This document shows, piece after piece, positions 31,240 to 60,009 of a stretch of 64,000 nt of DNA (the first letter of the stretch is position 1; each line of letters begins with the position of its first letter). Position numbers and translations under genes: made by a program. The notes beneath the pieces are model-generated. The model was not told the origin of the DNA, made no database searches, and saw only the letters and a list, made by a program, of their open reading frames with translations. Origin of the DNA: Bacilli bacterium (GTDB taxonomy: Bacteria; Bacillota_I; Bacilli_A; RFN20; CAG-826); contig JBGUXN010000029.1 of the NCBI GenBank assembly GCA_045222195.1, positions 742 to 64,741 on the forward strand, in the 5' to 3' direction.

Positions 31240-32154
31240 TTAGAAAGTTAAATCTTTAGCGATGTCCCACACTCTAGAAGCAACGTATTGAGCACCTTCT
31301 TTTGTGAAGTGGACGTTATCGTTATTTGGTCTTAGATATTTAGAGGCAAAATCCTCTGTGGCTTCGAATTCTTCACGAAGATCTAAGACTTCAAAACCAT
31401 ATTCGTCCGCTAAATCGCGTTGGATTGGATTAACATAATCTCTAATCTCATCATTAGGAATACCAAATTGGTTTGGTGTCACTACTGGTGGAGAGACCAT
31501 CATAATGAATCTAGCATTTGGGAATTGTTCAACATAGGAATCAAGAAGAATACGATATTCATCTTCAAATTGATCTTTGGCTTTTTCCCAACCAGTGGCA
31601 TCGTTTGTGCCTAACATAATAGCGAAGATATCTGGGGCAAGTTTAACTGATTTTTGATACACGTCCTGCTTAATATATCGCATTTCAGGATCATCCCAAG
31701 AACCACCATAACCGGTAACAGAGATGCCATTAACACCACAATTTTCAACCGCGTATTTATCGCTAACGTATTGGCTTAAATATGTTGGATAAGATTCATT
31801 AGCCCAGTAATGACCAGCGGTTAAAGAGTCACCACAACAGGCGATATGATACTTTTCTTTAACGAAAAATTCATACTCTAAAGTAACGCCTTCACAAGTG
31901 ATTGTGGCTTTTTTATCATCTAACCCTAAAGTATGACTAACTTCGAGTTGAAATTCGACCTTTTGTGTGTGGCCACATTTAGAACATTTCTTGCTCACTT
32001 CTAAACCAGTGGGATCAAAGCTATCACCGACGATATAAGTTCTTTTGTCTGAATTTCTGCTGATAAAATAAGAATATTCGTGGTCACATTTAGAACCACA
32101 ACCCGCTAATGCGGACATTAAGATAGGTAAAAGTAAGAGGAATCTAGTTTTCAT
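31240..32154 (-). CDS. SGNH/GDSL-family esterase lipoprotein with an N-terminal Cys-rich module
   Basis: ATG 32154 lies in TAATATG, one nt after the upstream stop. Lipobox MSALAG-C. The GDS block is IACCGDSLTAG. Other motifs: MLGTNDA and a C-terminal DNVHFT (DxxH). The N-terminal module has CDHEY...CSKCGH. Confidence 0.8.
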   Translation of the reverse strand: MKTRFLLLLPILMSALAGCGSKCDHEYSYFISRNSDKRTYIVGDSFDPTGLEVSKKCSKCGHTQKVEFQLEVSHTLGLDDKKATITCEGVTLEYEFFVKEKYHIACCGDSLTAGHYWANESYPTYLSQYVSDKYAVENCGVNGISVTGYGGSWDDPEMRYIKQDVYQKSVKLAPDIFAIMLGTNDATGWEKAKDQFEDEYRILLDSYVEQFPNARFIMMVSPPVVTPNQFGIPNDEIRDYVNPIQRDLADEYGFEVLDLREEFEATEDFASKYLRPNNDNVHFTKEGAQYVASRVWDIAKDLTF

Positions 32155-32155
32155 A

Positions 32156-33238
32156 TTAATCAATTGCTAAGAATGTATAGCTGGTCTTGCTATAGAATTC
32201 TTCTCCTGGTCTAAGAATTGGATTTTCGAAATTATCATGGTTAATCGCATCAGGCATCATCTGACTTTCTAAACAAATGTTGCCGCTACCATCTTTATAA
32301 AGTTGTAATCCTGGTCTATCTGTATGGACCAAAACGGCTAACTTAGATGTGTTACCAGTTAATGTGGCGACATGACGGAATCCTTCGCCGTTTAAGACAT
32401 AGTTATCATCATAACTCTTCGATTTATCGAAGGCTTTCTTTTCTCGATAATCAAATTGTGTGCCTGCGACAGGCGAAATATCACCTGTTGGGATTTGATT
32501 GCTCAACGGGGTGTAATTATCTGCGTTAATCATTAAATCAACGTTATCATAAGATCTATTTCCATTGATATCGATGAATAGGTGATTAGTAGGATTACAT
32601 AAAGTTGCTTTATCTGTAATAGCGCTATATTCAATCTTTAATTCACCTTCGCTAGATAAAGTATATTTAACTGTCATATCCATGTTACCTGGATAGCCGT
32701 TTTCTCCATCATTAGAATGGATTGAGTAAGTAATTGTATCAGCGGTTTGACTAACTTTAGTCCAATCTTTGGTGGCGAAAGGACCACGCCAAGAGTTCAT
32801 GCCGCTACCGCTTCCACCATGTAATGAGTTCTGACCATCGTTTTTACTGACGCTGTATGTTGTACCATCAATTTTAAATGTGCCGCCCGCAATACGATTA
32901 GCGCATCTACCGACAACAAAGCCGTCTTTAGCGACTTGCTTTCCGTTCCAAGTAATTCTATCAATGCTCGCACCTGTTGCTTTAAATTTCACGGATAAAC
33001 CACTATCAGTGTAAAGCTCATTCTCTTTCATTGGATGAGCTGGATCACTTGATGGTTCTGGTTCGCTTGATTCTTCTTTTGAGGATGAGACGATATCGTC
33101 AGAGGATACTTCTACTTGAGAAGTAGCACTTGGCTCTTCGCTGCTTTTTTCACTAATTGGTTGACTGCTTGAGGAACCACAAGAGGATAAAGCAGTTATC
33201 AAAGATAATAAAATAAGTGTACTAAAGATCTTTTTCAT
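32156..33238 (-). CDS. galM: Aldose 1-epimerase (galactose mutarotase family) exported as a lipoprotein
   Basis: ATG 33238 (RBS AGGTGA). Lipobox ITALSS-C plus a Ser/Glu-rich linker. Mutarotase motifs: GRCANRIAGGTFKIDGTTY, NSLHGG, PTNHLFIDI, DDNYVL, CLESQMMPDA. Confidence 0.85.
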   Translation of the reverse strand: MKKIFSTLILLSLITALSSCGSSSSQPISEKSSEEPSATSQVEVSSDDIVSSSKEESSEPEPSSDPAHPMKENELYTDSGLSVKFKATGASIDRITWNGKQVAKDGFVVGRCANRIAGGTFKIDGTTYSVSKNDGQNSLHGGSGSGMNSWRGPFATKDWTKVSQTADTITYSIHSNDGENGYPGNMDMTVKYTLSSEGELKIEYSAITDKATLCNPTNHLFIDINGNRSYDNVDLMINADNYTPLSNQIPTGDISPVAGTQFDYREKKAFDKSKSYDDNYVLNGEGFRHVATLTGNTSKLAVLVHTDRPGLQLYKDGSGNICLESQMMPDAINHDNFENPILRPGEEFYSKTSYTFLAID

Positions 33239-33321
33239 ATGTTTCACCTGCTCTTATAGTGTGGCACGTTCACGCTTTTTTGTATATGTCTTTTGTGTGA
33301 AAAACAAAAGATAATTGTTTT

Positions 33322-34192: not shown

Positions 34193-34222
34193 TAAAAAAG
34201 CCCCTCGTTTAACGAAGGGCTC
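34193..34222 (-). terminator. Terminator ending the sipW/amylase operon
   Basis: Minus strand GAGCCCTTCG-ttaaa-CGAGGGGCT followed by TTTTTT. Confidence 0.7.
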
Positions 34223-34236
34223 AAACTTGTTATTTA

Positions 34237-35178
34237 TTAGGCAAGTTGGAAATAGATTTGGTCTTCACCGTATTTAAGCTTGATGTAGATGGATTCAACA
34301 TTGAAGTCTTGTAAGACGGTGTATGTATGAGTGGAATAGTTATGAGAAATATAAGCTTTCCAGTTCGTGGATTCAGAATTACCACCGAATGACCATGGAT
34401 CGATATCAACTGTCCAACCAGCATTATTTTCAAAGTCATAGAGTTGGAAGACTTGGTCTTTGGCAAAACTTCTATGATTGATCAAGTGTTGTTGGAAACC
34501 GTTATCATCATTTGTTCTAACCGCGGCCATATAAGATTCATCAGAGAACTTAAAGCCAAAACCTGATGTTGGTAAAGCACCAGTACTTGATGGGGTGTAT
34601 TCGCCTGGAGTTGGAGGGACAACTTCACCGCCACCGCCATGGTTACCACCGCCTTGGCCACCACCTTTACCGCCAGTAAATGAGGCATAAAGGATTTTAT
34701 TTTGATAGCCAGGAGCTTTTAAGTATTCAGTGAGCTTGCCATCATTGTTATAAGCAACCCAACACACAAAGTGTGAACCTTCAACAGAGGAAGTGACTTC
34801 GTCATTTGGTAATAAGTCACCGACTTTTGCACTGAATTCCACAGTGTGTTCTAAGAACATTGATTCAATCTTAGTGTTAACTGGATTACCTTTATATAAG
34901 CCATATTCACCAAAGACTAAATAGACTTTGACTTCTGTGCCCGCTGGTAATTCATCGCTTGGAATGACAGGATCACTGCTTGGTTGAGGAGCGACACTAG
35001 AACTTGGCTCAACATTGCTACTTGGAGTGACTTCACCACTACTTGGTGTCACTTCTGAACTTTGCTCAGCATCAGAAGAAGATTTCTTACCTGGTTTACC
35101 TTGACCGTTATATTTCACACAGCCACTAATTGAAGTAAGGATGAGAGGGATTAAAACGAGTAAAACTTTCTTTTTCAT
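34237..35178 (-). CDS. Lipoprotein with an S/P linker, Flg_new-like domain, poly-Gly tract and an unknown C-terminal beta domain
   Basis: ATG 35178 (RBS AGGAGG 8 nt upstream). Lipobox LTSISG-C. Gly-rich tract GGKGGGQGGGNHGGGGE. The last about 110 aa are aromatic-rich. Confidence 0.7.
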   Translation of the reverse strand: MKKKVLLVLIPLILTSISGCVKYNGQGKPGKKSSSDAEQSSEVTPSSGEVTPSSNVEPSSSVAPQPSSDPVIPSDELPAGTEVKVYLVFGEYGLYKGNPVNTKIESMFLEHTVEFSAKVGDLLPNDEVTSSVEGSHFVCWVAYNNDGKLTEYLKAPGYQNKILYASFTGGKGGGQGGGNHGGGGEVVPPTPGEYTPSSTGALPTSGFGFKFSDESYMAAVRTNDDNGFQQHLINHRSFAKDQVFQLYDFENNAGWTVDIDPWSFGGNSESTNWKAYISHNYSTHTYTVLQDFNVESIYIKLKYGEDQIYFQLA

Positions 35179-35190
35179 ATTCACGCCCTC

Positions 35191-37767
35191 CTATTTCTTG
35201 AATACCGATACGGACCATTTTACCGCACCGATATCGCCGCCAGCATTACTTGGCGCACCACCCATGGTTTTGACATTAGAGTAGCCAGAACCTGGATTCA
35301 TTAAATAACTACCAGTACCAATACCAACGTTAATGTAAATCTTAAGCGATTCATTGTTACTGCCGTAGACATCTAAGACTAAGACTGTGCCACCACTGGA
35401 ATTATCAAAGTTGAGCTTAGCGCCCTTTGGATAAAGTTTCTTAATTGCGATTAAGTCTTTATACCAGTTATACATGGAGTTAGGGTCAGCTTTTTGAGTT
35501 TCAGCGTCTGCTAAGGTCTTATTGTAGCTATCTAATTCAAATTTATAAGCACCAGACTTATAGTCTGCTCTAATTGATGTATCTTTCCATAAGAATGGTT
35601 GACGATACCAGATATCTTCGCAGTTTTCTGAGCCATACATACTAACGTGTTGATCAGTATTAGAGGACATACCGAGTTCATCACCATAATAGATCCAAGA
35701 GACACCTGGATTTAATAAAGTGACAGCAGCATGAATCTTGGCTTTATTCACTTGATCACCTTGGCCAGTGACTTTGTTTAAAGCGGTTGTGCCCGCTAAG
35801 GTACCACTACCATTGACTTGGTTAATAGCACGCATAACGTCATGGTTGGAAGTGAAGGCACCATCGATGAAGTCTGGTCTAGAACCACCCATAATGCTAT
35901 ATGGATTCTTACCATCATCGACCAAGACGTTATTGCTTGTGGAGAATGTATCAAATGTTTCTGCTGCTTGCTTTGTAGCGAAGTGAGCAGGTGTACCGCC
36001 ATCTGTATATAAGAAGGCAGGAATATGATAGTAAGTTGAGAAACTGAACTGTGAATCAAGAGCTTGATAGTAAGAAGCAGTACGTGTGCCCCAACCATCG
36101 AAGTTTTCACCCACTAAGAAGCAATTTGGATAATCGGCTTTGACACCATGAGCGAATTCTTTCCACCACATGATGTTCTTTGTTAAGTTAGAGGAATAGT
36201 CAAAGCCTTTAGTAACATAGATACCCTTTTCATCATCGTAGGACTCTTTACTACCAACGTCTTGAACGATAATATCGCCGTTTTGATAGCATTCATCTCT
36301 CATGAAGATGTGCTTGACTGCGTCAAGACGGAAGCCATCTAAACCAAAGCTCATCCAGTATTTAGCCATATCGATGACTAATTTTCTTGTTGAAGCGTTG
36401 AGATAATTAATTTCAGGCATACCACTACCGAATTTACCGTAGTAATAGTAATGAGATTCACCATCTCTATACCATGATGGGTTAGAGCTTTCAGCATCTT
36501 CTTTAACGGTGATCTTTTTATAACTGTTTGTGGATGGATCATATTTTTCAATGATGTCACTTTCAAACTTCCAGTTATAAATATCTCTCCAGTTAATGTC
36601 TGTATCTTGTTTAGCCCATTGAGAATTGGAGAACCAAACATTACCTTTGGATGTATGGTTAAGGACTAAGTCCATGAGGACTTTCATGCCACTTTCGTGG
36701 GCTTTGTATAATAATTCACGATAATCATCGACAGTACCAAATCTCTTATCTACTGCGTAGTAATCGGAAATATCATAACCGTGATAAGAATCGGATTTTT
36801 GGATTGGTGTTAACCATAAGACTTGGACACCTAAATCCGCTAAATATGGTAAAGCATCAATGATACCTCTAATATCACCAATACCATCGCCGTTACTATC
36901 TCTAAAGGAAGCGACAAAGATTTGATAGCCAGCACCTAATGATTTAAATGAATCAGAAGTAGAACTAACGCCTAAGGCATTGGAATATTGCGCATCGACA
37001 TCACTTCTATAATTACCAGTGGTATCTTCATCAATTGGATTGGTTTTGGCTTGTGGGACACCACTACCAGCGTAATAGGCATAGTCATATAAAGCACCAG
37101 TAGAAACGAAGACGTGGATGGCTTTACCACCGGTCACATCTCTCCAGTTCTTGGCTTCACTAATATCATCTAAGTATGTTTCTCTACCACCATCGGAAAC
37201 CCAGTTAGTAGCACCGCTCATTGAGCTTTGTTGTGGAAGTAAGAAACCGATTTCTTCCATACCTTCAAATGTGGTTGGAGTACCGGTTTTACCACCCTTT
37301 AAATTAGCAGCATATAAGTCAACATCAGCGATTGCGCCATAATCATCAACATACGTTGAGGTGCCTTCTTTACCAACTTCCGCAGCGGTCATCCAGTGAT
37401 TGCTCATTGGAGAAAGAGTTAATTTATCGCTAACTTTTGGATTAGCAGAGAATGCCCATAGGGAACCTTCTAAATCTTGTGGGGAATGTTGCCATAACCA
37501 AAGGCAGTAGTTTTCATAACCGCCTTTATCACCTCTATTGTAATGGAAATATAAGTGATTTGGTTGGCTCCAGGAATTTAACCAGGCATCATATTCATCA
37601 ACATCATCAACTGGTGTAATGCTTGATTCACCTTGACCCTGAGAATCACTAGTTTGGCTTGTATCACCACTTGGGGCACCGCTTTTTTCACTAGTGCTAC
37701 CATTGTGCATAACACAGCCCGTCACTAAGAGGGGCAACAAAAGGAAAATGACTGTTCTTTTTTTCAT
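35191..37767 (-). CDS. GH13 alpha-amylase-family enzyme, lipoprotein, with an N-terminal CBM41/PUD-like module
   Basis: ATG 37767 (MKKRTVIFLLLPLLVTG-C). N-terminal HLYFHYNRGDKGGYENYCLWLWQ. GH13 regions: GDGIGDIRG, I VLMDLVLNHTS, II GLDGFRLDAVKHI, III FLVGENFD, IV FTSNHDV. Confidence 0.9.
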   Translation of the reverse strand: MKKRTVIFLLLPLLVTGCVMHNGSTSEKSGAPSGDTSQTSDSQGQGESSITPVDDVDEYDAWLNSWSQPNHLYFHYNRGDKGGYENYCLWLWQHSPQDLEGSLWAFSANPKVSDKLTLSPMSNHWMTAAEVGKEGTSTYVDDYGAIADVDLYAANLKGGKTGTPTTFEGMEEIGFLLPQQSSMSGATNWVSDGGRETYLDDISEAKNWRDVTGGKAIHVFVSTGALYDYAYYAGSGVPQAKTNPIDEDTTGNYRSDVDAQYSNALGVSSTSDSFKSLGAGYQIFVASFRDSNGDGIGDIRGIIDALPYLADLGVQVLWLTPIQKSDSYHGYDISDYYAVDKRFGTVDDYRELLYKAHESGMKVLMDLVLNHTSKGNVWFSNSQWAKQDTDINWRDIYNWKFESDIIEKYDPSTNSYKKITVKEDAESSNPSWYRDGESHYYYYGKFGSGMPEINYLNASTRKLVIDMAKYWMSFGLDGFRLDAVKHIFMRDECYQNGDIIVQDVGSKESYDDEKGIYVTKGFDYSSNLTKNIMWWKEFAHGVKADYPNCFLVGENFDGWGTRTASYYQALDSQFSFSTYYHIPAFLYTDGGTPAHFATKQAAETFDTFSTSNNVLVDDGKNPYSIMGGSRPDFIDGAFTSNHDVMRAINQVNGSGTLAGTTALNKVTGQGDQVNKAKIHAAVTLLNPGVSWIYYGDELGMSSNTDQHVSMYGSENCEDIWYRQPFLWKDTSIRADYKSGAYKFELDSYNKTLADAETQKADPNSMYNWYKDLIAIKKLYPKGAKLNFDNSSGGTVLVLDVYGSNNESLKIYINVGIGTGSYLMNPGSGYSNVKTMGGAPSNAGGDIGAVKWSVSVFKK

Positions 37768-37872
37768 ATCAAAAACTTCCTTTATCTGTATAGATTCATT
37801 ATACAACCAAATAGAAAAGATTTAATAATAATCTTAATTATTACTAAAAACTAACGATTTATTTAATTATGA

Positions 37873-39900
37873 CTACGCTTGTGCAACGTATCCGTCAATA
37901 AAGATTTCTCTAATGTGTTCTAATGTATGTTCTGAGATGCCAAAAGACATCAAATGATTCTTCATCTTATCAGCGAAATTATCACCGCTTAAAGCTTCTG
38001 TTTTAGAGATCCACTGTGGAAATTCAGCATCGTTTTCAGTCAGTTTAACAGTTCTACCTTGTGTGAACTGTGTCCAGACATAGTCTCTAGTCATATCTTG
38101 AATGCTAACACCCAATAAGGATTCTAAGAAGAATGAAGCAATGCCAGTACGGTCCGCACCATAGGTACAGTGTAATAAGGCTGGGTTAATATCACAGTTT
38201 GCGATTGTATTAAAAATAGTCACATATTGATTAGCAATATTTGTGCCACTATAAGTGCCACCTTCCCAGCGTACTGGTTCTGAGCCAGAAGGAATTGAGG
38301 CTTTAACTAAAGTTACTGGCCATGCAGCAGTATTAGCAGGAGATTGACTTGGCACATTAGCGCTATCTCTTAAATCGATATCAACTTTAATACCTAATTC
38401 TTTAATCGCGGCTAAACCTTTGCCCTCGTTATCAAGTTCGCTTCTTGTAGAAGAATAACCGGATTGATTTAATTGAGCGCATCTAAAGTAGAGGCCTTGT
38501 TTAATCTTTTGACCAGGCACTAAATATGTATTCCAACCACCGATATCACGGAAGTTTAAAACGTTAGGAACTTTAACAACACGTGGCGCTAAAGAAGTAG
38601 ATGTAGATGTTCTAATTTCAGCGGAAGCTAAACCATCTTCACTAGTTGCGGCACGATAGTAATATGTAGTGTTTAATTTAGCGTTCCATAATTCGTAGTA
38701 TGTGACGGTGGCTGTATTAATTGGAGCACTATTAAGAGCGCTTTCACTTTCTGCTACTTGAACGTAATATGTACCTCTACCAGCAAGGTCATCAAATCTC
38801 AATTTCATGGCTGAAGGAGCGGATAAATCGCTACCATCTGCATATGTTTTATAGTTTTCAATGTGATTATCATGGAGGAATTGATATTGATTTAAGTTAT
38901 GGAAATCATTATCAGGTACTTCATTCACACTTAATGGATCAACTGGATTCCATGTGGCTAAGTTACTTGACCAATTATCTTGCCAGGAACTCCAAGAGTT
39001 CATGCATAAAAGTGTGGAATCTTTAGAATAGTTTGTGCCATCTGCCCAAGAAGAACCTGAGAATGAGAAATCAGCGGATTGATTGCCCCACGTAAATGCA
39101 GATGCAGTAGATGAATATCTAGAGAATTTGAAATTGTTATAGTCCGCTGGGATATAGGTATATAAGGCATCGCTAGAAGAAACACCCATATGAATGGAGG
39201 TATTGTTATCTCCTTGCCAAGCATAAATACCAAAACTACTACCAGTACCATCCCAGTCAGCAGCCCAATAGCTATTTGGTTTGAAACCAATCTTTCTTTG
39301 AACAATAGCAGCGCCTTCATTTTCAATGAATTTATAAATACCCGAAGCGGTATGAAGGCTTCTAGAATCATTCCAAGAAGCACTGACATCTAAGACACCA
39401 TCAAGGCCTAAATAACGATAACCAATCAAAGTTTGTCCGATAGTATTTGTTTCTAAAACAACATCAGTATTTACTTCGTAATAGTTGGAATTAACATAGA
39501 CTTTTTTAGATGATGATTTAAAGATTGGATAGTATGTGGCGTCACTAGAAATGGTTAATTCCGCTAACTGCTCGTTTGTATAGTCAATCGCATAGCTTTC
39601 TGATGTCGGAGCGGAAGTTTTCCAACCTTGGAAATCATAGCCCTCCAAACTTAATGCAGGAATATCACCCGAATCAATAGACTCACCATTATCTACTTGA
39701 ACCACAACAGGTGTTTGCCAGCCACTATCGTATTCGGTATAGAATGTGACATTATTTCTTAATGGACTGACACGAATTTGAACGCCAAAAGAATTAGCGT
39801 TATCAGTAACACCGTACGCAGCAAATACACTACCTGCTGATAAACCAGCGGCTAGTAAAGCAACAAGGCTGAAAATAACGACTTTGCTACGCTTGCTCAT
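37873..39900 (-). CDS. Exported multidomain protein: SipW-cognate-type signal peptide, Flg_new repeat, CBM25/26-like module, Fn3-like module, C-terminal CX5R phosphatase (Y_phosphatase3 type)
   Basis: The track ORF starts at 39975. I prefer ATG 39900 (RBS AGAGGAGA, 14-nt overlap with the sipW-like gene). N-terminus MSKRSKVVIFSLVALLAAGLSAGSVFAAYGVTDNANSF. Other motifs: GYDFQGW...YYPIF and FGIYAWQGDNN...YNNFKFSR. Phosphatase motifs: NFRDIGGW, GLYFRC, IDLRD, and the P-loop LLHCTYGADRTG (38149-38172). Confidence 0.8.
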   Translation of the reverse strand: MSKRSKVVIFSLVALLAAGLSAGSVFAAYGVTDNANSFGVQIRVSPLRNNVTFYTEYDSGWQTPVVVQVDNGESIDSGDIPALSLEGYDFQGWKTSAPTSESYAIDYTNEQLAELTISSDATYYPIFKSSSKKVYVNSNYYEVNTDVVLETNTIGQTLIGYRYLGLDGVLDVSASWNDSRSLHTASGIYKFIENEGAAIVQRKIGFKPNSYWAADWDGTGSSFGIYAWQGDNNTSIHMGVSSSDALYTYIPADYNNFKFSRYSSTASAFTWGNQSADFSFSGSSWADGTNYSKDSTLLCMNSWSSWQDNWSSNLATWNPVDPLSVNEVPDNDFHNLNQYQFLHDNHIENYKTYADGSDLSAPSAMKLRFDDLAGRGTYYVQVAESESALNSAPINTATVTYYELWNAKLNTTYYYRAATSEDGLASAEIRTSTSTSLAPRVVKVPNVLNFRDIGGWNTYLVPGQKIKQGLYFRCAQLNQSGYSSTRSELDNEGKGLAAIKELGIKVDIDLRDSANVPSQSPANTAAWPVTLVKASIPSGSEPVRWEGGTYSGTNIANQYVTIFNTIANCDINPALLHCTYGADRTGIASFFLESLLGVSIQDMTRDYVWTQFTQGRTVKLTENDAEFPQWISKTEALSGDNFADKMKNHLMSFGISEHTLEHIREIFIDGYVAQA
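39787..39900 (-). other. SipW-cognate (TasA/camelysin-type) signal peptide
   Basis: MSKRSKVVIFSLVALLAAGLSAGSVFAAYGVTDNANSF. The G-x-x-F-A-A-Y-x-V-T-D core resembles the GGT(F/W)A-x-F-x-D core of Bacillus TasA/TapA/CalY signals. Confidence 0.6.
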
Positions 39901-40933
39901 TATTCGTTGTCTCCTCTTGCTTTGGTTCTTCTGGCTTTTCTTCTGGTTGTTCTGGGTCTTTTTTCTTTTTATCAAATAAGAGCCAATAAGCTACTGGAAT
40001 TAGGCATAAGCCTAAAATCATAATTGTACCCCATGGTGAAGATAAGAAACGGATTGGATAACCAAGTTTAGGAACTACATTTACAACTTTGGCTTTTAAG
40101 TCTTTTCTTTGATACCAACCATCGTCGGTATTAGCTTTATCACCACGAATCAAATATCTTTCATCGATATTGAACATGTATTTGTTATCTTCGTCAGCTT
40201 GTTTAACAATATCGTTATTAACTAAGATCTCGTTTTTACCACCACTGAGTTTGACATATTCAAAATAGGTGTTGTATTCGTAATTCTTTTTAGTAATGGA
40301 GAACTTGGCGGGGCTCATTGATTCCCTATGATATGTAATAACGTTTTTATAGTACCCGTTAGCTTCTTTTGAACTAGAAATAGTTGGTTCAATAGATGCA
40401 CTAGCGACGTTGAAGTAATATTCATCCACATCAAATTCATTTTGGGTATAGGCAACGATTTCTACATCGGTGAAAATGTAAGAATTTTCTAAATAGACTT
40501 GAGAAGATGGAGAAACAAACTTAAATGTTGTAACATCACCAATCTTTTCTTCTTGTAAATCAGTTAAATCAAATGTATCGCCACGACGATCAATGTCGAC
40601 GATACGGTGCATATCGGTGCCGATACTTGGATTATCAAAGATAACAACGTCTAAAACATTCAATTTTGTTTTATCAGTGATTCTTTTTGATACCACAAAA
40701 TCAAATGCTTGTATTTGCTTAGTGTCTTTTAAGAATTCTTCGTACTTTTCATTCTTCTTTGACATCGAATCAGTCAAAACGACATCATAACGAGTGTTGA
40801 AGACATAGAAAGGTGTTTTAGTAAACTTATAAATAAGTTCAACGGCAACGAAAACAAATAATCCGCCGACTAAAACATAACCAATAATTCTACCGACCTT
40901 TTTAGCGCGTTTACCGGCTTTTTCTTTTTTCAT
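39887..40933 (-). CDS. sipW: Signal peptidase I, ER/archaeal (SipW) type, with a large insertion between the His box and the GD box
   Basis: 348 aa. N-terminal TM IIGYVLVGGLFVFVAVELI. Boxes in order: VVLTDS56MSK, LDVVIFDN, DMH109RIVDI, RGD265KANTDDGW, VVPKLGYPIRFLSSPWG. A C-terminal TM TIMILGLCLIPVAYWLLF is followed by a K/E/P-rich tail. Confidence 0.8.
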   Translation of the reverse strand: MKKEKAGKRAKKVGRIIGYVLVGGLFVFVAVELIYKFTKTPFYVFNTRYDVVLTDSMSKKNEKYEEFLKDTKQIQAFDFVVSKRITDKTKLNVLDVVIFDNPSIGTDMHRIVDIDRRGDTFDLTDLQEEKIGDVTTFKFVSPSSQVYLENSYIFTDVEIVAYTQNEFDVDEYYFNVASASIEPTISSSKEANGYYKNVITYHRESMSPAKFSITKKNYEYNTYFEYVKLSGGKNEILVNNDIVKQADEDNKYMFNIDERYLIRGDKANTDDGWYQRKDLKAKVVNVVPKLGYPIRFLSSPWGTIMILGLCLIPVAYWLLFDKKKKDPEQPEEKPEEPKQEETTNNEQA

Positions 40934-40945
40934 AACTAAGGGAAA

Positions 40946-40969
40946 GAGGGGCAGGAGACCCTACCCCTC
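40946..40969 (-). promoter_or_regulatory. GC-rich 10-bp hairpin between the 386-aa gene and the sipW-like gene (possible attenuator or mRNA-stability element)
   Basis: Minus strand GAGGGGTAGG-gtct-CCTGCCCCTC followed by TTTCCCTT. It sits 17 nt after the upstream stop and 12 nt before the sipW ATG, which has no SD. Confidence 0.5.
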
Positions 40970-40986
40970 ATATTTAAATAAACTAA

Positions 40987-42147
40987 TTAAGCGTGGGCTT
41001 TGCAGAAAATATGGATGCCGTTATTGAGTGTTGGGTTGAAGAAGAAATCGTAGTGATTTGCTTCACCGATAACAATGTTCGCGCAACCATTTTCGTGACT
41101 GCTTTCACCATACCAAACGTTGTCTGTGCTAACGACTTTAAGTTCTGTGCCAGCAGCAATTTCAACGTTTTCAATCTTGAATGTGTAATCGAAATCGTTT
41201 TCTTCGTCACCATTTCTATCGAGACTACCTTCGGAGGCAACGAGTTTATTGGCTTCGACCATCATCCATTCGTTGAATGTACCAACGAGATAGAAGTCAA
41301 CTTCTGCATCGAGATCTGGAGCAGCCACCCATGCATCATGGTAGTATGGGTTGCTTGGATCAATTGTTAAGTCTGTTGTTTGAGAACCATTGTTGTTGGA
41401 GAAAATGATCATATCGAAGTTAACGTCTAAAGCGATGGAATAGATGTCATCTTTGACTTGTGTCATTTCAGCACCTGGGAATTCGGCGTTGCTAGCCATT
41501 GTGGAAGAATTCCAAGCATAGGCATAAACGTGAGACCAGCTCATTTTGTTCCAGAAATAATAAGTTCTTGAAGTAACTTCTTCAATACCTGAACCCTTAT
41601 TCCAGTCAACTGTTAATGTAACAACGTCGTTCTTAATCTGGTTATAGACTGCTGGATTTAAAGTGCCGTCTAACGCGACATAGAAATAAACCATTTTTTC
41701 TACACCACTGTTAACAACGATGTCTTTTGCCACTGTGTAATTAGCAGAACCATCTGGGACTGTTAATAATGGATCACCTGTTTTTGTGTTGTTGTCATAA
41801 ACATTAACAGATAAGTAGTTGATAAGTTTTTCTTCACCTGTGGCAGTTGTTTCAAGCTTAACAAGTAAGCTACCTGTGAAAGCAGAAGCATCAGATGTTG
41901 TGGCTCTTAAACCAAGGGCATATGGGCCTTTTTCTTCACCAACTGATAAGCTTTCAATGTTGATTAAGCCTTTTGTACCCCAATCGAGAGTAACGGACTT
42001 ATCATCGCCAATTTCAACTGCTTCTGGAGTAATTGTCACGGAGAATGGATCAGCATTATCTGTGACAGCCCAAGCTGCGAATGTTCCACCGACGAGTAAA
42101 GCGGCTGCGACGACGGAACCTAAGAAAAATAGAGATTTTCCTTTCAT
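40987..42147 (-). CDS. Exported protein: SipW-cognate-type signal peptide, about 160-aa possible TasA/camelysin-like domain, CBM25/26-like starch-binding module, second CBM20/48-like module
   Basis: 386 aa with RBS AGGAAGGT. N-terminus MKGKSLFFLGSVVAAALLVGGTFAAWAVTDNADPF. aa 193-275: YYFWNKMSWSHVYAYAWNS...EFPGAEMT...DMIIFSNNNGSQTTDL. aa 283-386: FYLVGTFNEW...AGTELKVVSTDNVWYG. Confidence 0.75.
   Translation of the reverse strand: MKGKSLFFLGSVVAAALLVGGTFAAWAVTDNADPFSVTITPEAVEIGDDKSVTLDWGTKGLINIESLSVGEEKGPYALGLRATTSDASAFTGSLLVKLETTATGEEKLINYLSVNVYDNNTKTGDPLLTVPDGSANYTVAKDIVVNSGVEKMVYFYVALDGTLNPAVYNQIKNDVVTLTVDWNKGSGIEEVTSRTYYFWNKMSWSHVYAYAWNSSTMASNAEFPGAEMTQVKDDIYSIALDVNFDMIIFSNNNGSQTTDLTIDPSNPYYHDAWVAAPDLDAEVDFYLVGTFNEWMMVEANKLVASEGSLDRNGDEENDFDYTFKIENVEIAAGTELKVVSTDNVWYGESSHENGCANIVIGEANHYDFFFNPTLNNGIHIFCKAHA
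42043..42147 (-). other. SipW-cognate (TasA/camelysin-type) signal peptide
   Basis: MKGKSLFFLGSVVAAALLVGGTFAAWAVTDNADPF. Confidence 0.6.
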
Positions 42148-42296: not shown

Positions 42297-42326
42297 AATT
42301 TAAAAAGACTGCCATTTGACAGTCTT
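42297..42326 (-). terminator. Terminator ending the pullulanase/ABC operon
   Basis: Minus strand AAGACTG-tcaaatgg-CAGTCTT followed by TTTAAATTT. Confidence 0.55.
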
Positions 42327-42347
42327 TATAAGTGATGAATGTCAGGA

Positions 42348-57771: not shown

Positions 57772-60009
57772 TTAAGCAACTAGATTAAATAGATAGTAGT
57801 CAATACATGGACAACCAGCATTAGTATTAGCGTTTTGTGAATCTAAGCAACCAGCGATGGTATGTAAACCGGCTGTGACTGTGAATTCGAATTCAATTAA
57901 ACGCCATTCCCAGCTAGCCACTGAACTATCAGTATGATCAGCAGTAACGCAGGTGAATTTACCTGTTTCACCATCTAAACGATATTGATAGACATATGAA
58001 TAGTCGATAGTTGCGGTTTTGGAGTTTTTGCCACCACGACAGTACGCAACTTTCATATTAACTTTGCCATCTTTTGGTGCATAAATGACGATTTCAAATT
58101 TTCTATTAGCGTCATAGTTACCAGTACTTGGAGTGACGAATTTACCACCTGAAGCATTAGCATCAGCGTCATCAGCGACGAATGTGCTATTACTACCCCA
58201 ACCAGAGTTTTTCCACGCTGTTGGTGTGGCGTTTTCCGCTTCAAATTTCACTTCTTCACCAGCTTTTAAGGCAATACCATTACTTGGGATTTCTGGAGTT
58301 TCATCAGTTGGAATGTATGGATCTTGGTCTTTAACATAACCAGGAACGAATTTAACTCTAATAGTTTCTAATGTATCGCTAGATAAGCCTTTACTCATTA
58401 AGTGAGCTTTCATTTGTTCGGCAAATGTTGGTTTATCAGCGTAAGTTGATTTTGTTTTACTAACCCAGTTAACAAATTCACTGTTATAGTCTCTAAAGCC
58501 TTGAGTGGAGAAGTTGGTGTAGCAATAATCTCTACCAATATCTTCTTCAGAAACACCACATAAGGCTAATAAGAAGAATGTCGCAATACCAGTACGGTCC
58601 GCACCAGCGGTGCAATGTAACATAATTGGATTATTATCAGCATCAGCGATAGCTTCAAAGATTGGTTTATAAACTTCACCATAATCTTCCCAACGTCTAC
58701 TTTCAGTACCTGATGGAATAGAAGCTTTTAAAATAGCAACTGGCCAATCTGTAGTTGATGCTGCAGAAGTTGATGGGACTTGATAGCTATCTCTCATATC
58801 GATATCGAGTTTGATACCTAATTCTTTAATAGCGGCTTTACCTTCAGAAGTAATGTTATTTGGATTAGCGCAGCGATAATATAAACCTTGTTTAATAACA
58901 CCATTAGGAATTAAGGAAGATTTCCAACCACCGACATCACGGAAGTTAGAAATACCACCAACTTTTAAGTTTCTTGGTGCTTGAGTAGCTACTTTAAATT
59001 CTTTAGCGGTTGCACTTGCTAAACCTGCTTCACTTGTCGCGGCTTTATAGTAATATGTTTCACCTAATTCAGCATTCCAAAGTTCGTAATATTTAGCAGT
59101 TGTTTCATATGTAATAGCGCCACTAAAATTATTAACGCCTTTAGCGACTTGGACATAATATTTACTCGCATCAGCGACATCATCAAATTTTAGATTTAAG
59201 GCTCTTGGAAGAGATAATTCTTGTGTACCTTGAGCGTAATTTCTGATGTTATGCCAATCAGGGTCATTGTTATATTGATATTGGACTAAGGTATGGAAAT
59301 CATTATCTGGAACAGAATCCACTACTGGAGGTTCTGGATCAACATCACCACTTGGTTCTTCAATTAAGAAATCTAAATAGTCAGTACATGGGCAACCTGT
59401 GGAAGTATTGCTAATAACTGACATAGTAATTTTATGATCACCTTTTGGTAAGGTAATTGGACGATATGTCATTCTATACCAATCAAATTCTTCACTTCTC
59501 GCTCTTAAAATATGATCATCACCATATGGGATTTGTTGGGAAGTTGTTTCGATAACAAAGGCATATGTTAATGACATGTCTTCATCATTACTTAACCATT
59601 TACTACTTTGGCAATACGCCGCAGTCATCGTGATTTTACTTGGTTGATTGAGTTTTAAAACAAAGTCACATGTTCCAGAATTAGCGGTATCACCAGTGGA
59701 TGAGGCTAAATAATAACCACCAGAGGCTTTTTCAGACGCCATGACTGGAGTTGGGAAAATGCTGGATGTAACCCAGTTAGCGGTATTGATATTTTCCGCT
59801 TCAAATCTAATGGTGCCATAGTTATTAATATCAACATTTGGATCACCACTAAATGTGGAAGAAGAGGAACTACTTCTTCTCGATCTAGAATAGTCTTCTT
59901 CACTAGAACTTAGTTCTTCTGATGAATGAGAACCACCTTCGGGTTTCCCACCACAAGCGGCTAAACTTAAAGCGCAAAGCAAAGCCATTAAAAAGAGTTG
60001 TTTTTTCAT
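57772..60009 (-). CDS. Lipoprotein: CBM6/35-like module, Fn3-like module, CX5R phosphatase (Y_phosphatase3 type), second CBM6/35-like module
   Basis: 745 aa with RBS GAGGAG. Lipobox LSLAA-C plus a Ser-rich linker. First CBM-like module IRFEAENINTANW...CPCTDYLDF. Phosphatase motifs: NFRDVGGW, GLYYRC, IDMRD, and the P-loop MLHCTAGADRTG (58594-58617). Second CBM-like module VKFEAENATPTAW...CPCIDYYLF. Confidence 0.8.
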   Translation of the reverse strand: MKKQLFLMALLCALSLAACGGKPEGGSHSSEELSSSEEDYSRSRRSSSSSSTFSGDPNVDINNYGTIRFEAENINTANWVTSSIFPTPVMASEKASGGYYLASSTGDTANSGTCDFVLKLNQPSKITMTAAYCQSSKWLSNDEDMSLTYAFVIETTSQQIPYGDDHILRARSEEFDWYRMTYRPITLPKGDHKITMSVISNTSTGCPCTDYLDFLIEEPSGDVDPEPPVVDSVPDNDFHTLVQYQYNNDPDWHNIRNYAQGTQELSLPRALNLKFDDVADASKYYVQVAKGVNNFSGAITYETTAKYYELWNAELGETYYYKAATSEAGLASATAKEFKVATQAPRNLKVGGISNFRDVGGWKSSLIPNGVIKQGLYYRCANPNNITSEGKAAIKELGIKLDIDMRDSYQVPSTSAASTTDWPVAILKASIPSGTESRRWEDYGEVYKPIFEAIADADNNPIMLHCTAGADRTGIATFFLLALCGVSEEDIGRDYCYTNFSTQGFRDYNSEFVNWVSKTKSTYADKPTFAEQMKAHLMSKGLSSDTLETIRVKFVPGYVKDQDPYIPTDETPEIPSNGIALKAGEEVKFEAENATPTAWKNSGWGSNSTFVADDADANASGGKFVTPSTGNYDANRKFEIVIYAPKDGKVNMKVAYCRGGKNSKTATIDYSYVYQYRLDGETGKFTCVTADHTDSSVASWEWRLIEFEFTVTAGLHTIAGCLDSQNANTNAGCPCIDYYLFNLVA

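Follow-up and report, generated by a model that had tools for sequence, protein, structure and literature searches.

A secreted chimera of a SipW-cassette subunit and a PtpB-class phosphatase encoded in a starch operon of a Bacilli bacterium

This study concerns a 64,000-nucleotide stretch of DNA (hereafter, the window) from a Bacilli bacterium (GTDB lineage Bacteria; Bacillota_I; Bacilli_A; RFN20; CAG-826; NCBI GenBank assembly GCA_045222195.1, contig JBGUXN010000029.1, positions 742 to 64,741) and, within it, a minus-strand gene for a protein of 675 amino acids (aa), called the target below. The target is a secreted chimera in which a three-beta-domain subunit of a SipW-type cassette is joined to a pre-domain and a PtpB-class phosphatase module, and we hold its chimeric architecture and extracellular location with high confidence. 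It is an exported PtpB-class phosphatase that is new in its fusion to a SipW-cassette subunit and in its placement in a starch operon. Phosphate on starch or maltodextrin is put forward here tentatively as the target's substrate; an earlier note on this DNA had proposed a candidate glucan (starch) phosphatase.

Identity of the protein and its export signal

The translated product is identical to database protein P0001 and has 17 full-length orthologues at 48–87% identity. As P0001 and all 17 orthologues begin at the ATG at 39900, the TTG at 39975, which opens a longer open reading frame (ORF; 37873-39975, minus strand), was rejected as the start; Cys578 in the 675-aa protein corresponds to Cys603 in the 700-aa ORF. 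No family name in NCBIfam was matched by the target protein, and the profile scan of contigs of species-representative genomes contained no full-length orthologue of the fusion.

The translation opens with a TasA/CalY-type, SipW-cognate-like signal peptide, MSKRSKVVIFSLVALLAAGLSAGSVFAA, after which the mature protein begins with YGVTDNANSFGV; this bears out the secretion signal that had been claimed in the earlier note. The signal type and mature N-terminus are alike, by eye, in the target (SVFAAYGVTDNANSFGV) and in the neighboring protein with a carbohydrate-binding module (CBM) of family 26 (GGTFAAWAVTDNADPFSV), and we take both signals to resemble the GGGT[WF]A signals of TasA and CalY. No signal-peptide model in NCBIfam matched the target signal, the likeness of the GGTFA/SVFA motif being judged by eye. 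The positions of all features are collected in Table 1.

Table 1. Features of the target gene, its neighbors and its paralogue in the window
Feature	Position	Strand	Basis
Whole gene, 675-aa exported scaffold-phosphatase fusion	37873..39900	-	ORF list and translation; stop codon 37873-37875
TasA/CalY-type (SipW-cognate-like) signal peptide, then mature N-terminus	39817..39900	-	Translation
Domain 1, Listeria-Bacteroides repeat (Flg_new) / InlB B-repeat-like beta domain	39505..39768	-	
Domain 2, beta-rich, no family match	39319..39504	-	AlphaFold (AF2) secondary structure; kept in orthologues and N-half-only proteins
Domain 3, aromatic-rich beta-sandwich, putative divergent member of the CBM26-related repeat family	38935..39318	-	Translation, AF2, hhalign
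Pre-domain, always ahead of the phosphatase in the family, possibly FN3-like	38581..38928	-	Co-conservation with the catalytic domain
Y_phosphatase3 (PtpB-class) catalytic domain and conserved C-terminal tail	37876..38580	-	Pfam E 2e-24
Motif NFRDIGGW	38533-38556	-	Translation
Motif DIDLRD	38365-38382	-	Translation
P-loop HCTYGADRTG (Cys578, Asp583, Arg584)	38143..38172	-	Translation; invariant in 17 orthologues
SipW-like (archaeal/ER-type S26B) signal peptidase gene, 348 aa	39887..40933	-	Stop end overlaps the target start by 14 nucleotides
Cassette partner, 386 aa: same signal type, N-domain like the ~190-aa protein, CBM26, further C-terminal beta region	40987..42147	-	
GH13 alpha-amylase lipoprotein	35191..37806	-	Pfam Alpha-amylase E 6e-75; lipobox LLVTGC
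Conserved 315-aa lipoprotein, last gene ahead of a terminator-like site	34237..35184	-	Present in all orthologous loci
Paralogue, 745-aa lipoprotein, pre-domain and Y_phosphatase3 (HCTAGADRTG), no starch context	57772..60009	-	Pfam E 3e-31

The phosphatase domain

Y_phosphatase3 (PF13350) is the sole significant Pfam domain in the target, matched with 87.4 bits against a gathering cut-off of 22.2 over ORF residues 468-643, and this cut-off was likewise passed by all the orthologues and paralogues scanned. The earlier note had read a full Y_phosphatase3 signature at the C-terminus: the motifs translate exactly, but a conserved tail of ~57 aa follows the domain, which is thus not the extreme C-terminus. 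The P-loop that it had named was also borne out, with His to Arg at 38149-38172, and presents the CX5R arrangement with the catalytic Cys, the Arg and the in-loop Asp that Y_phosphatase3 requires. Since His577, Cys578, Asp583 and Arg584, together with DIDLR, are unchanged across the 17 orthologues, the phosphatase is, on this conservation, almost certainly enzymatically active. The nearest solved sequences are PDB entry 8dhi (E 1.2e-7), for which a literature search found no paper, and, very weakly, Mycobacterium tuberculosis PtpB (1ywf, E 0.7). Most of the 80 genome loci listed, and every one of the ~400-aa lipoproteins, have the pre-domain along with the catalytic domain, and in one homologue there was a weak match to Pur_ac_phosph_N (E 0.0011).

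Membership in better-known groups was rejected. The glucan phosphatases have the P-loop signature C-zeta-A-G-psi-G-R; the target has C-T-Y-G-A-D-R, no DSPc match at E<=0.1 and neither CBM20 nor CBM48, and it was not placed with laforin, SEX4 and LSF2. In homologues, DSPc matches were found only below threshold, underneath the Y_phosphatase3 match. The phytases (PF14566) related to protein tyrosine phosphatases (PTP) were rejected on the absence of PTPlike_phytase from all Pfam scans at E<=0.1. The atypical lipid phosphatases (ALP; MptpB/LipA) carry the signature HCXXGKDR[TA]G, in which the Lys is described as important for substrate binding (PMC6409689). This Lys is Ala in the target, in all the orthologues and in the window paralogue, which led us to reject ALP-subclass membership; across the wider family, the position is occupied by T, R, V, L, C, M or K. 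As the P-loop lacks the ALP Lys and the PTP-like phytase family was not matched, phosphoinositide and classical cysteine-phytase roles are less likely.

The N-terminal half and its link to CBM26

AlphaFold (AF2) modeled the N-half as three beta domains with a predicted local distance difference test (pLDDT) of 87, domain 3 alone having 81. Domain 1 gave a Pfam match to Flg_new below the cut-off (E 0.008), the relative P0131 standing above the cut-off at 27.4 bits, and in Foldseek it resembled the InlB B-repeat 2y5p with a target TM-score of 0.80 and a root-mean-square deviation of 2.4.

The region that the earlier note had singled out, FGIYAWQGDNN...WGNQSADFSF, does lie in domain 3 (38935-39318). 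For domain 3, a profile was searched against 1.84 billion representative proteins and returned 26 matches, namely P0013, which represents the fusion proteins themselves, and three groups. The first consists of seven N-half-only proteins of ~310–330 aa, with a signal and domains 1–3 and without the phosphatase; the second is one 3442-aa protein, P0136, with an Flg_new domain and seven matching stretches; and the third comprises secreted or lipoprotein multi-repeat proteins of gut bacteria, whose repeat had no Pfam match in the scans run and follows the consensus YLKPNxNW..ARFAxYxW..DGDGxY..IPxGY..IFCRMNP..NNWxNKWNQTxDL. This repeat family (P0139-P0155; alignment A4) occurs in gut Firmicutes and Bacteroidota, with copies up to at least 7 per protein.

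Domain 3 aligned to the repeat family at 98% in hhalign (E 2.5e-13), and the repeat family aligned over its full length to a CBM26 profile of 4 sequences at 88.5% (E 2.7e-6) and to the CBM26 of the window at 82%. Members of the family also carry two CBM26 domains (P0153), pullulanase X25 (P0152) and the CBM48-like AMPK1_CBM (P0141). Through the repeat family and this co-occurrence, domain 3 appears to be remotely related to CBM26 and is a putative glucan-binding domain, and the repeat family itself is a candidate new starch-binding module family that is apparently unclassified. The CBM25/26-like module of the earlier note thus found no direct HMM, profile or structural match, and the HMM check that the note proposed, which put Y_phosphatase3 above its cut-off, yielded no CBM family; its pattern recognition was nevertheless reasonable, given the transitive homology and the co-occurrence with CBM26, X25 and AMPK1_CBM.

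A cassette with the free N-half

The genes of the N-half-only proteins belong to a conserved cassette of four genes, which encode a ~190-aa protein, a ~300-aa protein, a SipW-type peptidase and a ~320-aa protein, the three non-peptidase proteins having TasA/CalY-like signals. Cassette loci are L002, L084, L087, L089, L091 and the window (39887-42147), where the single 386-aa CBM26 protein stands in for the first two proteins. That partner matches Pfam CBM26 at E 6.6e-13, and its N-domain aligned to the ~190-aa cassette proteins at 68% in hhalign (E 4.7e-5); a PDB search with it gave no match. The cassette of L089 occupies the same chromosomal position as that of the window; aldose epimerase, GDSL, GdpP and L9 genes lie close downstream of it, with a 1389-aa CBM26 protein upstream and a 720-aa polytopic membrane protein in the place of GH13; the adjoining GH13 is missing in both relatives with an unfused N-half cassette (L089 and L091). 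As the profile of the ~190-aa protein matched no TasA or camelysin in the PDB, a TasA-like fiber stays an analogy.

Comparison by eye further showed that the first ~12 mature residues co-vary, locus by locus, between the phosphatase or N-half protein and its ~300-aa or CBM26 partner. The pairs are VTDNANSFGV and VTDNADPFSV in the window (39817-39870 and 42031-42132), KKPEDASFGIR and KAAEDTSFGIS at L087, and KEVSDVTFTFR and KGASNISFEFG at L084, L002 being a further locus of this kind. These termini could be a common recognition or assembly strand.

The starch locus and its conservation

All genes from ~51250 to 31240 lie on the minus strand. In order, they encode a pullulanase-type GH13 enzyme with CBM48, a small lipoprotein, a maltodextrin-type ATP-binding cassette (ABC) sugar transporter (binding protein, two permeases and ATPase) and a 134-aa membrane protein; then the 386-aa CBM26 protein, the 348-aa SipW-like peptidase, the target and the GH13 alpha-amylase lipoprotein; and finally the 315-aa lipoprotein, a TMEM164-family membrane protein, an aldose-1-epimerase lipoprotein and a GDSL lipoprotein. 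The position of the target gene between the signal peptidase (39887-40933) and the GH13 gene (35191-37806) is as the earlier note had placed it, and the link to the amylase is stronger than the note could show: GH13 lies directly downstream in 10/10 fusion-gene contigs examined (nine orthologues at 48–70% identity and one identical protein). A SipW-like gene lies directly upstream, and a ~315-aa lipoprotein gene followed by aldose epimerase and GDSL genes downstream, in every examined fusion contig that reaches that far.

The phosphatase gene is translationally coupled to sipW by the overlap of 14 nucleotides. The terminator scan found terminator-like hairpins on the minus strand of this region only at 42304-42327, 40946-40969 and 34198-34222, and none between the target and the GH13 gene. 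Since no terminator-like site separates these two, the transcription unit likely consists of sipW, the phosphatase gene, GH13 and the 315-aa lipoprotein gene, with the CBM26 gene ahead. The hairpin at 40946-40969 (minus strand), which lies between the CBM26 gene and sipW, is GC-rich, with 10 bp, 7 of them G-C, and a poor T tail; it might act in attenuation, or in processing or stability, and thereby fix how much CBM26 protein is made relative to the downstream products.

The SipW label of the peptidase held in part. The window copy is weakly SipW-like (NCBIfam E 6.6e-4) and aligns to the orthologous peptidases (222–253 aa), which match two models with E-values that are significant yet below the curated cut-offs: TIGR02228, for archaeal-type signal peptidase I (E 3e-11 to 1e-10), and NF046067, for SipW (E 1e-10 to 2e-8). 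In BLASTP, residues ~49–114 of the orthologue align twice to the window peptidase, at ~49–113 and at ~177–240, which suggests an inserted, degenerate internal duplication whose second copy is without the Ser and His boxes. At the far end of the locus, the aldose 1-epimerase and GDSL esterase (31240-33247, minus strand) both have lipoprotein signals and a predicted extracellular location, and they keep their synteny with the cassette in all relatives; for a mutarotase, export is unusual.

The phosphatase module elsewhere and its exchange on the scaffold

The C-half is shared, at ~61–76% identity, with more than 100 proteins of ~520–670 aa, and the five relatives that were read (5/5) are lipoproteins from uncultured Bacilli whose N-termini, made of Cys-rich repeats or 'FEAE..ASGG' modules, are unrelated. 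One such gene, that of P0036, has rpsL-rpsG-fusA-tuf on one side and acpP-plsX-rpoBC on the other, and a second Y_phosphatase3 gene lies close by. The window itself encodes a lipoprotein paralogue that is 51% identical to the target over residues 321-672 (tblastn, E 1e-100). On both sides, this paralogue carries 'FEAEN...W...ASGG.Y' beta modules, reminiscent of galactose-binding-like domains of the CBM6/35 type and with no Pfam match; the 'FEAEN...ASGG' N-terminal module type is also present in lipoproteins of the P0036 type.

In species-representative genomes, the pre-domain with the phosphatase was found at 284 loci, almost all in metagenome-assembled genomes from herbivores or guts, including Bacilli, Erysipelotrichaceae, Lachnospiraceae, Oscillospiraceae, Acutalibacteraceae, Lentisphaerae and others, and nearly all copies are lipoproteins or membrane-anchored. 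The wider family at E<=1e-30 counts 505 proteins, typically of ~400 aa; Ruminococcus copies have an added SLH and a lectin-like domain. The commonest neighbors of wider-family genes are GFO/IDH/MocA oxidoreductases (8–9/130), UPRTase (7/130), SLH (6/130), BY-kinase-like ATPases (5/130), Wzz (3/130) and Polysacc_synt (3/130); UDP-GlcNAc 2-epimerase accounts for 4/130. Recurrent neighbors (L004-L083) hint at cell-envelope or nucleotide/sugar-salvage ties for some family members. Many Clostridia homologues (L020, L023, L028, L030, L035, L037, L039-L041, L062, L063, L072 and others) have a long His-rich N-terminal tail (HHHHHH or SHHSHH runs), then a membrane anchor and, after it, the pre-domain with the phosphatase; this tail may have a metal-binding or regulatory role.

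Among the fusion proteins, the C-halves fall into type A (P0001-P0014; 81–89% identical within the type) and type B (P0015-P0018; 77–94%), which are only 44–51% identical to each other; a 'RWEGG..TYSGTNI' insertion is present in type A and not in type B (alignment A1). Type A is nearer to the free lipoproteins (66–76%) than to type B, whose best free relative is at 54%. The lineages of the N-half cross this division: P0004 (type A) is 69–70% identical in the N-half to P0016 and P0018 (type B), and the N-half of P0013 and P0014 (type A) is 64–66% identical to that of P0017 (type B), with the synteny alike for both types. As two module types at 44–51% identity sit on scaffolds that are 64–70% identical in the same synteny, the phosphatase module appears to have been swapped or re-acquired on the scaffold more than once, with a phosphatase always kept. 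This constant retention speaks for selection that keeps a phosphatase in this position, whatever its substrate.

Function of the phosphatase in the starch locus

Phosphate esters on starch and glycogen block amylases near the modified glucose, and plants and animals need dedicated glucan phosphatases. At somewhat less than even confidence, we favor a glucan-directed function, in which the target acts on starch or maltodextrin phosphate. The SipW-like peptidase would cleave the signal of the target, which would remain, on starch or at the surface of the cell, in association with the other cassette proteins, one of them with a canonical CBM26. In that position, the phosphatase would hydrolyze phosphate monoesters on alpha-glucan or phospho-maltodextrins, which would free otherwise blocked chains for the GH13 enzymes and the maltodextrin ABC transporter and release inorganic phosphate (Pi), while in the reducing, anaerobic gut lumen the catalytic cysteine would stay active despite its extracellular position. 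The separate lipoprotein paralogue retained in the genome (57772-60009) and the absence of the ALP-subclass Lys from the P-loop speak for this function, as do the intact catalytic domain, the export signal, the operon and the synteny with GH13, the lack of an adjoining GH13 where the N-half is unfused, the two module types on closely related scaffolds and the transitive link of domain 3 to CBM26. A much bolder version, which we consider unlikely, would make the target the first bacterial extracellular starch phosphatase, convergent and of the PtpB class, displayed with CBM26 partners on a SipW-dependent, TasA-like, starch-capturing surface assembly of herbivore-gut Bacilli, with A and B modules that differ in specificity (e.g., for C6- versus C3-phosphate, as SEX4 and LSF2 do).

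Several observations weigh against a glucan-directed function. Cereal starch carries little phosphate, and the fold class of the target differs from that of all known glucan phosphatases. Domain 3 gave no Pfam CBM match even at E<=10 in 15 orthologous copies, its profile matched nothing among PDB sequences, and hhalign gave 0.04% against the CBM26 of the neighbor and 0.9% against the 4-sequence CBM26 profile. Foldseek searches of the PDB with the N-half and with domain 3 gave no match at E<1e-3, and the 50 matches listed include no CBM25/26 structure; the matches were beta-sandwiches of a generic kind (TssJ, pilins, cytolysin domain 4 and CBM41), the best relevant one being CBM41 with a TM-score of 0.44–0.52. 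The L091 cassette has no starch genes nearby, its neighbors including GH53, PRK and HAD, and the N-half may serve as a scaffold and not for targeting. Taken by itself, the catalytic module has no link to starch: the 130 immediate neighbors of wider-family genes matched 139 Pfam families in all, and the 25 commonest of these include neither an amylase nor a starch CBM. Lipoproteins whose genes lie among ribosomal, rpoBC and plsX genes have the P-loop of the type A module and are 66–76% identical to it, so that a new substrate specificity of type A is not evident. Finally, Pho16B, the one characterized secreted environmental Y_phosphatase3, is promiscuous, with ten substrates including glucose 6-phosphate, p-nitrophenyl phosphate, phytate and nucleotides (PMC6409689). 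The phosphatase module of the target may have a broad range, with its placement deciding what it acts on.

Only slightly less probable, in our view, is a general ecto-phosphomonoesterase without glucan specificity that scavenges Pi from the organic phosphates of the digesta, such as sugar phosphates, nucleotides and phytate. The N-half would merely mount such an enzyme on a SipW-dependent surface structure, and co-expression with the amylase would reflect Pi demand or a genomic accident. This agrees with the wide distribution of the module on cell surfaces (the 284 loci and 505 proteins given above), with the housekeeping or cell-envelope rather than starch contexts of the wider family, with the presence of several paralogues per genome, with the closeness of type A to such lipoproteins, with the breadth of Pho16B (PMC6409689) and with the occurrence of the N-half without the phosphatase and without starch genes. 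However, scavenging leaves unexplained why the module was fused to the scaffold precisely beside GH13, why two module types are kept up there and why separate lipoprotein copies are kept for the generic job. A PTP-superfamily phytase or inositol-phosphate phosphatase that obtains Pi from feed phytate, as in rumen Selenomonas or Megasphaera, is quite improbable. The P-loop of the target is HC..G.DRTG and not the HCEAGVGRT type of the PTP-like phytases, the PTPlike_phytase family was unmatched in every Pfam scan, and the locus has no inositol-related gene. The habitat, rumen or hindgut, would suit such an enzyme, the annotation of PTP-like phytase is sometimes given to Y_phosphatase3 proteins (PMC13316621), and Pho16B has ~30% relative activity on inositol hexakisphosphate, but the basic P-loop Lys of the phosphoinositide-metabolizing ALP subclass is Ala here (PMC6409689). 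The phytase or inositol-phosphatase alternative that the earlier note had offered thus fails as a family assignment and survives as one possible activity of a promiscuous ectophosphatase.

Action on polymers or proteins of the bacterium's own or a neighboring cell surface (phosphorylated exopolysaccharide or teichoic-like polymers, or phosphotyrosine proteins), in building or remodeling a SipW-dependent matrix, seems to us similarly improbable. TasA-type cassettes are matrix systems in Bacillus, Y_phosphatase3 is formally named a tyrosine phosphatase family, Ruminococcus copies carry SLH and a lectin-like domain, and some neighbors in the wider family are BY-kinase-like, Wzz, Polysacc_synt, UDP-GlcNAc 2-epimerase or SLH genes (5, 3, 3, 4 and 6 of 130). 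These envelope-type neighbors are, however, a small minority; the usual BY-kinase partners, being cytoplasmic, are excluded by the extracellular location, and the target operon has an amylase and not polysaccharide synthesis genes.

Significance and comparison with known systems

If the glucan-directed function is true, it would reveal the way in which gut microbes cope with phosphorylated starch (from tubers or leaves) and would provide a new enzyme class for starch-utilization systems and a tool for starch processing. Regardless of function, the large surface cysteine phosphatase family in anaerobic gut bacteria, the SipW cassette with starch-binding-type modules on its subunits and the unclassified repeat family, apparently related to CBM26, are new subjects for study.

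Compared with CBM26 and CBM25, domain 3 shares the beta-sandwich, and its [YH]-x-W and F-x-R...W-x-N-Q-S-x-D-F align, through the repeat family, to Y-x-W-N and I-F-N...Q-T-x-D-L of CBM26; it differs in that the link is transitive, with no direct HMM, profile or structural match. The cassette recalls the tapA-sipW-tasA operon of Bacillus and the calY operon of B. cereus in having a dedicated archaeal-type signal peptidase gene among genes with GGT[FW]A-type signals and several substrates per cassette. It differs in its ~190-aa subunit without detectable similarity to TasA structures and in its starch-binding-type modules and enzyme.

With the ALP-class enzymes PtpB, LipA and Pho16B, the target shares PF13350, the HC-x4-DR-TG P-loop with its in-loop Asp, and export; it differs in the change of Lys to Ala, the obligatory pre-domain, the 320-aa three-domain scaffold, the TasA-type signal and the starch operon. 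According to one paper, laforin is absent from bacteria (PMC13011383), and no bacterial glucan phosphatase was described in the literature searched, in agreement with the earlier note and within the limits of that literature. The target is like laforin, SEX4 and LSF2 in its Cys-based CX5R chemistry, in the proposed removal of starch or glycogen phosphate that would help amylases and in a candidate carbohydrate-binding-type module. It differs in having Y_phosphatase3 instead of DSPc, no CBM20 or CBM48, the CTYGADR loop and an extracellular instead of a plastidial or cytosolic location. The view of the earlier note that a CBM with a phosphatase repeats the laforin/SEX4 architecture is weakened accordingly: the CBM link is transitive, the N-half also exists as a free-standing subunit, and the catalytic module is neither starch-linked nor a dual-specificity phosphatase. 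The PTP branch, the CBMs and the P-loop are different, and any glucan phosphatase function of the target would be convergent with that of the eukaryotic enzymes and not a matter of membership in their group.

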